64,000 nucleotides of DNA from contig OZ024742.1 in the NCBI GenBank assembly GCA_964016885.1, forward strand, positions 21,142,001 to 21,206,000, written 5' to 3'. Numbering within the stretch: position 1 is the first letter of the stretch; each line of letters opens with the position of its first letter. The DNA comes from Eledone cirrhosa (lineage: Eukaryota). Below are positions 5,668 through 14,903 of this stretch, piece by piece. Made by a program: the position numbers and the translations under genes. The notes beneath the pieces were generated by a model. It saw nothing but the letters and a program-made list of their open reading frames with translations. It was not told where the DNA came from and ran no database searches.

Positions 5668-5736
5668 ATTTTATTATGCGCATTTCAAAAACAAATATCA
5701 TCATGCAATAACATTTGTGTTTTCGTCAGATAAAAT
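5668..5736 (-). ncRNA. Type I hammerhead ribozyme motif (family A, copy 1)
   Basis: Minus strand: ATTTTAT-CTGACGA-long stem II-GAAA-TGCGCA-TA-ATAAAAT, giving a 7-bp stem I and palindromic stem III. Confidence 0.8.
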
Positions 5737-8300: not shown

Positions 8301-8878
8301 AAAATACGTATTTAAGAAAGCCACAACAATGCAAAGGGAAATCTCGAGGTAGGAAGTGAAATATAGATAGGAAAAACAGGTGAAAGTGAAAGTTGAGAGA
8401 CACAAAGATGAAAACAAAACAAAGGTAGAAGGGTTACCGTAGTAGAGATTTAATCCCAATATTTCGGGCTCACGCCCATCAACTGGGGAAAAGTTCCCAA
8501 AGGGGGGTGGAACTTTTCCCCAGTTGATGGGCGTGAGCAAATAGAGGGGTGCAAATATGTCTGTGTGAGAATGCGTGGGTGAAAGGTTACGTACACTGGA
8601 AAGAAAAAAATTAAGTCTGAATGTTAATTAAGTGCAAACACAAAACCAACCACGCATATCTTTACTATCTCCAATCCCTCTATAGATTTAGAAAAATAAC
8701 CAATAATATAAAAACAAATAACGAAACGAAATTAAATTTCGTTTCGTTTGTAACTCACTTTTGTATGACTGACGCTTAAACAATTAAGTTAAAAATGTAC
8801 ATCCACATATGTATACTGAAATACTAGTATGCATATGAATACACACACGTGTACATATGTAGATGTACCGAGTTTTTC

Positions 8879-9299
8879 ACTGGTCACTTTACTGTGAGTG
8901 TCCAGCTATTCTGTATGTAAACACACAGACAAACCGGTTTTTAGAGTCATACTGGTTTTTGAGGAAACACCTTTCCTCAATTTCGTTTCGTTATTTGTTT
9001 TTATCGTCTCCGTTGAACCGGTACGTACTCACGCTCTATGCAAATTAGTCTGACCATTACTAATTTTCATAGAAAAAGCATATAACGATATGTGCTTTTA
9101 CGATTCTCTAGAAAGGCCGGAAGATAGGTAAATATTGCTGATGAGATGTAACAACATCGAAACTAGTCCAATATTCCTTGTCTGGCTTTCTGGAGAATAG
9201 AGGAAAGGTGTTTCCTCAAAAACCAGTATGACTCTAAAAACCGGTTTGTCTGTGTGTTTACATACAGAATAGCTGGACACTCACAGTAAAGTGACCAGT
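8879..9299. repeat. Perfect 100-bp inverted repeat enclosing a hammerhead
   Basis: 8879-8978 is the reverse complement of 9200-9299. Confidence 0.92.
9131..9175 (+). ncRNA. Type I hammerhead ribozyme motif (textbook minimal form)
   Basis: AATATTG-CTGATGA-GATGT-AACA-ACATC-GAAA-CTAG-TC-CAATATT. Predicted cleavage is after GUC (C9168). Confidence 0.92.
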
Positions 9300-9460
9300 A
9301 GGCGTTCTCCTACATGGATATAAGGTAGTGGCCGTACTCGAAAACGAGTTGGCAGCCACCATATATGTATGTATATGTATATATGTATGTATATATATAT
9401 ATATCTATGCATATATATATGTATATGTATATATATATATATGTATATATATCTATGCAT

Positions 9461-14536: not shown

Positions 14537-14903
14537 TACATTTTTTTACTGTGGGTTTCGTTGTTGTGGTTGGCAGTACTTTGGCATGTGTTAGGATGTT
14601 TTTCATTGACTTAGATTATCTTTTGCTCTTTACGATATCGTGTGTTCGTAGGATTTGGTTCATTCTATGGTCCTTTTTCAACACAGGGATGTTCTGGAGG
14701 ATGGTGTCAAACGCCTCGTTGTTGAGGGGGTTGTGTGTTGAGATGTATAGAAGAGCTTTTAGTTTCGGTTGATTTACTTTACGGTGTCTAAGGTCCTGGG
14801 TACTGAGTTTTAGGGCACGTTGGATTCCATTGTCAATTAGTGATGCAGGGTAGTCCCTGTGTATGAGTGTGTCCTTTAGTTCTTGTAGCCGTAAGTAGCA
14901 GGT
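14537..14903 (-). pseudogene. Inverted 5' segment of PLE ORF (RT thumb/linker)
   Basis: Minus strand reads [48 protein letters not shown], which continues into KKCNRP at 14912 on the plus strand. Confidence 0.8.

Follow-up and report, generated by a model that had tools for sequence, protein, structure and literature searches.

A truncated, head-to-head copy of a 466-bp hammerhead retrozyme in Eledone cirrhosa, likely inserted by a Penelope-like element

Results

A single two-armed insertion at positions 8708-9299

The 64,000-nt stretch of Eledone cirrhosa DNA analysed here (the window) carries a single insertion at positions 8708-9299, which consists of two arms joined head-to-head (Table 1). 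Both arms are pieces of one 466-bp unit, numbered such that u1 corresponds to window position 8979. The first-pass annotation had described a perfect 100-bp inverted repeat at this site, and rightly so: 8879-8978 and 9200-9299 are reverse-complementary at 100 of 100 positions, and the match stops sharply at both limits with no extension inward or outward. The repeat is the overlap, u222-321, that is present in both arms. The hammerhead does lie in the spacer between the repeats, but these are not the terminal repeats of an element built around it, given that they are the overlap of two pieces of one unit; the element also continues to the left of the repeat for another 171 bp, to 8708, which had been overlooked. 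Only the right arm carries the ribozyme, presumably because the left cDNA ended after 271 nt, at u222. A perfect inverted repeat around a ribozyme can be a mere by-product of integration.

The inner junction (8978/8979) and the right junction (9299) each occur once in the 3-Gb genome and, with both defining junctions unique, the inverted-repeat element is not a mobile unit. No target duplication was found at 8879/9299, nor did we find the hallmarks of a MITE or terminal-inverted-repeat element, that is, the same inverted ends at many loci together with a target duplication. Over 8708-9299, there is no stop-free stretch of 150 codons. The octamer-like word ATGCAAAT is visible by eye in the sister family described below as well; the octamer has a promoter role in newt satellite 2.

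Table 1. Features of the insertion and its flanks (window coordinates; u, unit position)
Feature	Position	Strand	Remarks
Left target, another repeat	8640..8710	.	ATA 8708-8710 common to target and element
Left arm, unit 222-466, then 1-26	8708..8978	-	3' end u26 at 8708, one of two fixed family ends; without hammerhead
'Tail' between the fixed ends	8708..8782	-	u418/423 at 8782/8777 to u26 at 8708; 13-bp hairpin 8720-8748
Inverted-repeat arm 1, unit 222-321 of left arm	8879..8978	-	100/100 match
Head-to-head (5'-to-5') junction u222/u1	8978..8979	.	one genome match, here
Right arm, unit 1-321	8979..9299	+	single hammerhead; ends ~100 nt before the other fixed end, u418-423
Octamer-like word ATGCAAAT (u60-67)	9038..9045	+	candidate promoter element, lead only
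Extended hairpin, hammerhead at tip	9103..9198	+	z -5.1; identical to commonest variant (14 loci)
Type I hammerhead	9131..9175	+	predicted cut after C9168 (u190)
Inverted-repeat arm 2, unit 222-321 of right arm	9200..9299	+	100/100 match
Right flank, middle of a third repeat family	9298..9360	+	other copies 7029, 7526, 59432; upstream part missing

Flanks and age of the copy

The left end of the insertion lies in a short AT run rather than a long (TA)n. An uninterrupted copy of the left target at 26460-26340 continues differently after a short AT run, and contigs from three (X1, X5, X6) of six sequencing runs (kind unspecified, four organism labels) diverge with loose ends after 8710. On the right, u321 overlaps the third repeat by 2 nt (GT). 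As the left target breaks off and the right repeat lacks its beginning, one deletion is the simplest reading, and the original right end, which we would expect at u418-423 with an overlap of ~200 bp, was likely lost together with flanking DNA. Alternatively, and for the right end only, u321 could be original, the second DNA end having been primed there by the 2-nt microhomology with loss of target DNA. Odd outer ends in 11 of the 48 junctions with both ends visible speak for this alternative, as does the single private change of the copy, which leaves little time for a later deletion; against it, one later deletion simply explains both missing flank segments. We regard an original end at u321 as a serious contender, if on balance doubtful.

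The first-pass annotation had taken the identical arms to suggest a recent insertion. The copy is indeed young, but arm identity is a weak means of dating, given that 31 of the 115 arms compared from elsewhere likewise agree perfectly over these 106 columns. Its youth follows instead from near-identity to the family: the window copy differs from the eight nearest arms at 0-3 positions, and only one change, at 9053, is private to it.

A type I hammerhead at the tip of an extended hairpin

The hammerhead is present as originally described, with stem I formed by 9131-9137/9169-9175 (7 bp) and stem II by 9145-9149/9154-9158 (5 bp), around a core of CUGAUGA (9138-9144), GAA, ACUAGU (9162-9167) and C9168; the stem II base pair is G-C. 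The CUGANGA, GAAA and NUH core elements together with helices I and II make it a type I hammerhead, and a stem I bulge and an AACA loop 2, candidates for a tertiary contact between loops 1 and 2, are also present. Two features had escaped notice: stem I is prolonged into the hairpin 9103-9198, and helix III in a single molecule amounts to one A-U pair closing CUAG. ACUAGU is self-complementary, which allows a double hammerhead to form.

The Rfam model HH9 matches 9120-9191 with 38.9 bits (E 3e-8, 801 bases), below its gathering score of 52, and at the gathering score there was no Rfam match anywhere in the window. We counted 1,597 exact genomic occurrences of the 38-mer 9135-9172 and none of its reversed control; the match is therefore not due to chance. 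The window insertion itself is ordinary, being one of more than 1,500 identical hammerhead cores. Many family copies have T at the position of window 9168 (GUU site), and T dominates by depth in runs X1-X3; in many copies, it accompanies a compensated variant of stem II.

A scan of the window returned eight hammerhead-like matches, seven of which have a long stem II and a final A preceded by a TA-rich stretch. The proposal that the motif at 9131 is the best ribozyme candidate in the window holds insofar as it is the sole one of the eight to combine a short stem II with a GUC site, but its predicted self-cleavage as a single copy is poor (see below). Atypical hammerhead-like motifs with a long stem II and a TA-rich palindromic helix III lie at 5729(-), 59760(-) and 63965(-), and motifs of these types recur in many of the fetched loci.

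Predicted folds favour tandem copies over the lone window copy

In all four read-through contexts folded, stems I and II were formed at 0.92 and 1.0, whereas both mirror-element motifs that were folded (48024 and 48958) were fully paired to their antisense arm. The earlier expectation that fold-back would spare the window hammerhead and bury those of the mirror elements is thus borne out in prediction. The mirror elements (47490-48343 and 48424-49394) look like two-armed (TA)n insertions of other families; each arm bears one atypical hammerhead-like motif (48024+/47818- and 48958+/48838-).

The predicted monomer fold pairs the core CUG with UAG (probability 0.68-0.86), and a stable helix III was not found in the monomer (A9162-U9167, probability 0.0). 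The active fold costs +7.4 kcal/mol for the lone window copy; in a naturally occurring tandem, the figure is +0.4 kcal/mol for the double hammerhead and +15.1 for two monomer folds, energies that ignore tertiary contacts and Mg2+. Helix III pairing is satisfied only in the double form, as in amphibian motifs, and in a single copy, such a helix III is predicted to require a partner hammerhead. That hammerheads with a weak helix III rely on a second hammerhead is a general rule (PMC4209133). According to Cervera and de la Pena (2020; PMC7229834), axolotl HHR_Amex1 was cleaved to 6% in 1 h alone and much more as a dimer, and according to Li, Clavereau and Pollet (2026; bioRxiv 10.64898/2026.07.22.740005), eight of nine predicted Xenopus retrozyme dimers stayed uncleaved in vitro.

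Given the cost of +7.4 alone versus +0.4 in tandem, arrays elsewhere are better candidates for activity than the window copy, and tandem arrays such as L022 and L105 would make better constructs for cleavage tests. With one cut site at the locus, release of a unit-length RNA is impossible and, with no downstream start sites on its strand either, monomer production or a new move is unlikely. As modelled, the window copy, with one cut site and without a tandem partner, is likely a dead end, although pairing with transcripts of the many sister copies could still allow its RNA to be cleaved in trans.

Across 27 distinct hammerhead sequences (23 from the family and four from its sister family), 92.6% of cells pair, compared with 39-48% in slid controls, and 17 of 34 pairs have changes on both sides; the shuffle test on these sequences is inflated by their relatedness. 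Compensatory changes occur in stems I and II, and the A-U pair of helix III is invariant. These substitution patterns indicate that the hammerhead motif is under selection within the family.

A family of dispersed 466-bp tandem units

Searching the 3.0-Gb genome with the spacer returned 18 scored matches, mostly within 466-bp tandem arrays, and copies of the family were found on C1, C2, C3, C4 and C9. The unit is non-coding, has G or C at 167 of 466 majority positions and folds strongly as a whole (z -10.9). Two or more tandem motifs on the same strand are present at 26 of the 41 loci selected by hammerhead, and one insertion reaches ~14.3 kb (L103/L104); the window locus itself is a single-motif fragment. 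Runs X4 and X6 contain contigs of 495 and 496 nt, corresponding to one unit plus overlap. With its tandem type I hammerhead units, its short, low-GC, non-coding unit and its dispersed young copies, the family is, judged by sequence, a new family of a known kind of element, the non-LTR retrozymes, and the window holds a truncated, single-ribozyme copy.

Several related observations were made along the way. In runs X4, X5 and X6, labelled as three other organisms, the unit is found at low depth with 95-99% identity, which may reflect relatives, contamination or transfer. A sister retrozyme family (L025:998-1700, L028:7680-9200, L030, L074, L116, L141) has a unit of ~480 bp that is 65-77% like the 466-bp unit, the same ACUAGU, a GUA site and U-U as the basal pair of stem II; visual inspection places its ends at the two equivalent sites. 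A long array of a 470-bp subfamily (~89% identity) extends over L068 (G000:C1:95653000-95661000), L101 and L102. The insertions L131 and L132, separated by ~18 kb, share arms and junction and are likely the product of a local segmental duplication.

Insertions end at two fixed sites, one on each arm

We mapped 86 regions, 46 found via the hammerhead or adjoining such loci and 40 via end motifs, some of which overlap one insertion. Outer ends lie at u26 or u418-423, adjoining (TA)n. Genome-wide, u26 next to TA occurs 2,302 times, and the longer u418/423 end pattern has 739 forward matches and 1,765 reverse matches, the latter inflated by a variable gap. Among the ends listed for the first 104 Mb of C1 (94 u26 and 57 u418/423), there are 40 adjacent outward-facing pairs within 20 kb, and 38 of these have one end of each type (p 7e-10 versus even odds). 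The two exceptions are a 26/26 pair, which turned out to be two insertions (L111), and a real 418/418 pair (L112). Removal of eight overlapping regions left 53 two-armed junctions: 36 are one-of-each, one is 418/418, none is 26/26, 11 (the window included) have one odd end with both ends visible and five leave the fetched region.

Unlike the outer ends, the inner 5' ends are evenly spread over the unit (chi-square p 0.58, n=106). A start of the arms at the ribozyme cut was considered and discarded (4 of 106 inner ends within 5 nt, p 0.24); inner ends are not enriched at the cut site, which means that the arms read through it. Stalling of reverse transcriptase at the foot of the hammerhead hairpin was likewise not significant (15 of 106 in u200-245, p 0.10). 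The inner junctions mostly join unrelated unit positions with 0-7 nt of overlap. Overall, the insertions have the layout of Penelope-mobilised copies, with an inverted 5'-truncated arm, a tail at one end and an AT-rich or microsatellite target.

Both arms appear to be copied from one sense-strand template

Rare changes at 78 loci are skewed on the ribozyme strand, with 40 A>G against 17 T>C (p 0.0013), an excess that depends largely on a few loci (L138, L137 and L105); G>A and C>T are balanced (16 and 19). A>G makes up 15 of the 29 changes common to both arms and five of the 40 on one arm only. At L105, 20 units across two arms show zero differences and share three rare A>G changes. Clusters of A>G on the ribozyme strand, reminiscent of hyper-editing, were seen at L138 (9 of 10 rare changes), L137, L105 and L065. 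This pattern would fit A-to-I editing of one sense-strand template that was copied repeatedly into both arms. In only 23 of 50 insertions were the two arms each other's strict nearest match, with 10 ties, a count in which overlapping fetches of one insertion were scored as 'other'. Arms that read through the cut site are also expected from an uncut linear multimer of a young array, and the 5-unit higher-order period in part of the L068 array implies that not every array comes from a monomer circle.

Head-to-head arms might also arise by self-priming on an antisense template, a hypothesis put forward in PMC3846280, or by fold-back at the DNA level. The window junction does have a hairpin to either side (8959-8980, and the tail hairpin with u1 as its loop), and a few junctions are long palindromes (L107, L108, L109, L087). 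Against these routes stand the mostly unrelated positions joined at inner junctions and the A>G excess on the ribozyme strand, and fold-back leaves the one-of-each end types unexplained; we consider this origin unlikely. Fixed paired ends and the A>G skew would instead fit Penelope-type copying of a sense RNA from both DNA ends.

Penelope-like elements as the putative partner

Penelope-like ORFs with RWK/RWR and DKT motifs, which mark the Hydra clade, lie near several of the loci, and one Hydra-type Penelope family has a (TA)n end and the same two-armed insertions. In the window, fragments of Penelope-like ORFs are found at 14867-15316 and 34938-35999. Pfam named one of six ORF pieces (GIY-YIG, at 14867-15316), a PDB search with the ORF pieces gave nothing significant, and the Atlas grouped the L019 ORF with animal RT clusters. 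No autonomous element sharing the unit sequence was found in the 86 mapped regions or at 14 further Penelope-like loci; as no Penelope-like ORF shares real sequence with the unit, we infer the partner rather than having found it. At L027:8752 / L096:1250-3807, a 15-unit array stands head-to-head with a 5'-truncated Hydra-type Penelope ORF; array and ORF may represent a single insertion copied from two different RNA templates, although the element is truncated at its far end.

The unit might alternatively be the pseudo-LTR of an autonomous Penelope-like element yet to be found, of which our copies would be solo or tandem fragments. Penelope signatures are seen throughout, the 5' end of the L027 array is joined to the truncated ORF, and in bioRxiv 10.64898/2026.07.22.740005, 24 of 57 Xenopus retrozyme families are homologous to known elements, 21 of those 22 elements being Penelope-like. 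However, across the 86 mapped regions, which sample a few percent of the 2,300 or more insertions, no ORF continues into the unit on the same strand, and the 3' region of the L027 element shares only one AT-rich 40-nt match with the unit, which makes a pseudo-LTR quite improbable.

Discussion

Very probably, the locus holds a truncated copy of a 466-bp retrozyme whose two arms stand head-to-head; a Penelope-type enzyme likely inserted it, and its inverted repeat is the stretch present in both arms. The alternative, a recently inserted unit whose terminal inverted repeats enclose the hammerhead and which is active at this locus, is hardly credible. In its favour, the arms are perfect reverse complements (100/100), stems I and II persist in the folded-back RNA and the motif is the commonest family variant; against it, the element reaches 171 bp past the left arm, neither junction recurs anywhere in 3 Gb, there is no target duplication at 8879/9299, the arm sequence is internal to a tandem unit and the lone active fold costs 7.4 kcal/mol.

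For the retrozyme family, we envisage the following route. Tandem arrays would be transcribed, and adjacent hammerheads would pair via ACUAGU into double hammerheads that excise 466-nt monomers, which probably circularise. A Penelope-like RT/GIY-YIG protein may then nick both strands of an AT run and, on the sense RNA, one DNA end would prime at u26 and the other at u418-423. Each cDNA would be of variable length, crossing the cut site when long enough, and microhomology would join the two cDNA ends. We tentatively propose, and consider plausible without holding it to be established, that this reflects an undescribed Penelope step, in which each end of the break is assigned one start site for reverse transcription on a sense, A-to-I-edited retrozyme circle, both polymerases crossing the ligated ribozyme site. 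If true, such a step would settle the question of sense versus antisense templates that the available text of PMC3846280 leaves open, and would demonstrate the circle-template step that appears only as a proposal in the text of PMC7229834 at hand. A literature search, covering few subscription journals, returned no description of one-of-each end pairing or of edited retrozyme copies in titles and abstract openings.

The window is a damaged example of this end assignment, and not the best one. As a truncated copy, the locus itself matters little; the end-pairing rule of the family will be more interesting if shown biochemically. Thousands of young insertions with fixed paired ends, together with the predicted 466-nt RNA, now provide material to address both the head-to-head arrangement of Penelope insertions and the question of circular templates.

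Relation to known systems

The family shares with metazoan non-LTR retrozymes, as far as the available text of PMC7229834 and bioRxiv 10.64898/2026.07.22.740005 goes, tandem units that are non-coding, low in GC and equipped with one type I hammerhead each, a range from monomers to long multimers and the proposal of Penelope elements as the mobiliser. A helix III of one pair plus a palindromic tetraloop is likewise described for axolotl HHR_Amex1 in the accessible part of PMC7229834. The unit of 466 bp exceeds the 170-400 nt given there and falls within the 51-972 bp of the bioRxiv study. Circular RNA is a feature of the retrozymes described in these portions, whereas the circles of the present family are putative; conversely, head-to-head arms with one of each fixed end are found here and do not appear in the retrozyme descriptions of the two texts in the form available. 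Under the two-unit rule for 'active' loci in the bioRxiv text, the single-motif window locus falls short.

Among ribozyme models, Rfam Hammerhead_HH9 (RF02275, clan CL00010) has the same type I topology, and the core and bulged stem I align across the whole model; the window motif scores below the gathering score, as given above, and is without the longer helix III of HH9.

Penelope-like elements, in the accessible portions of PMC8557442 and PMC3846280, produce an inverted, 5'-truncated copy in head-to-head orientation, with a tail at one end only. In the part of PMC11167929 available, Penelope has two internal RT start sites that are independent of hammerhead cleavage, both DNA strands are nicked and extended, and the PAc protein performs nicking and extension of both strands in vitro. 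AT-rich or (TA)n targets and microhomology at the 5' junction are shared with endonuclease-bearing members in the same three partial sources. The tail at 8708-8782 resembles the Penelope tail described in the available text of PMC11167929 and PMC3846280, but is longer (69-74 nt versus 30-40 bp). In contrast to Penelope-like elements, the family reported here has no ORF, and its arms may hold many tandem units.
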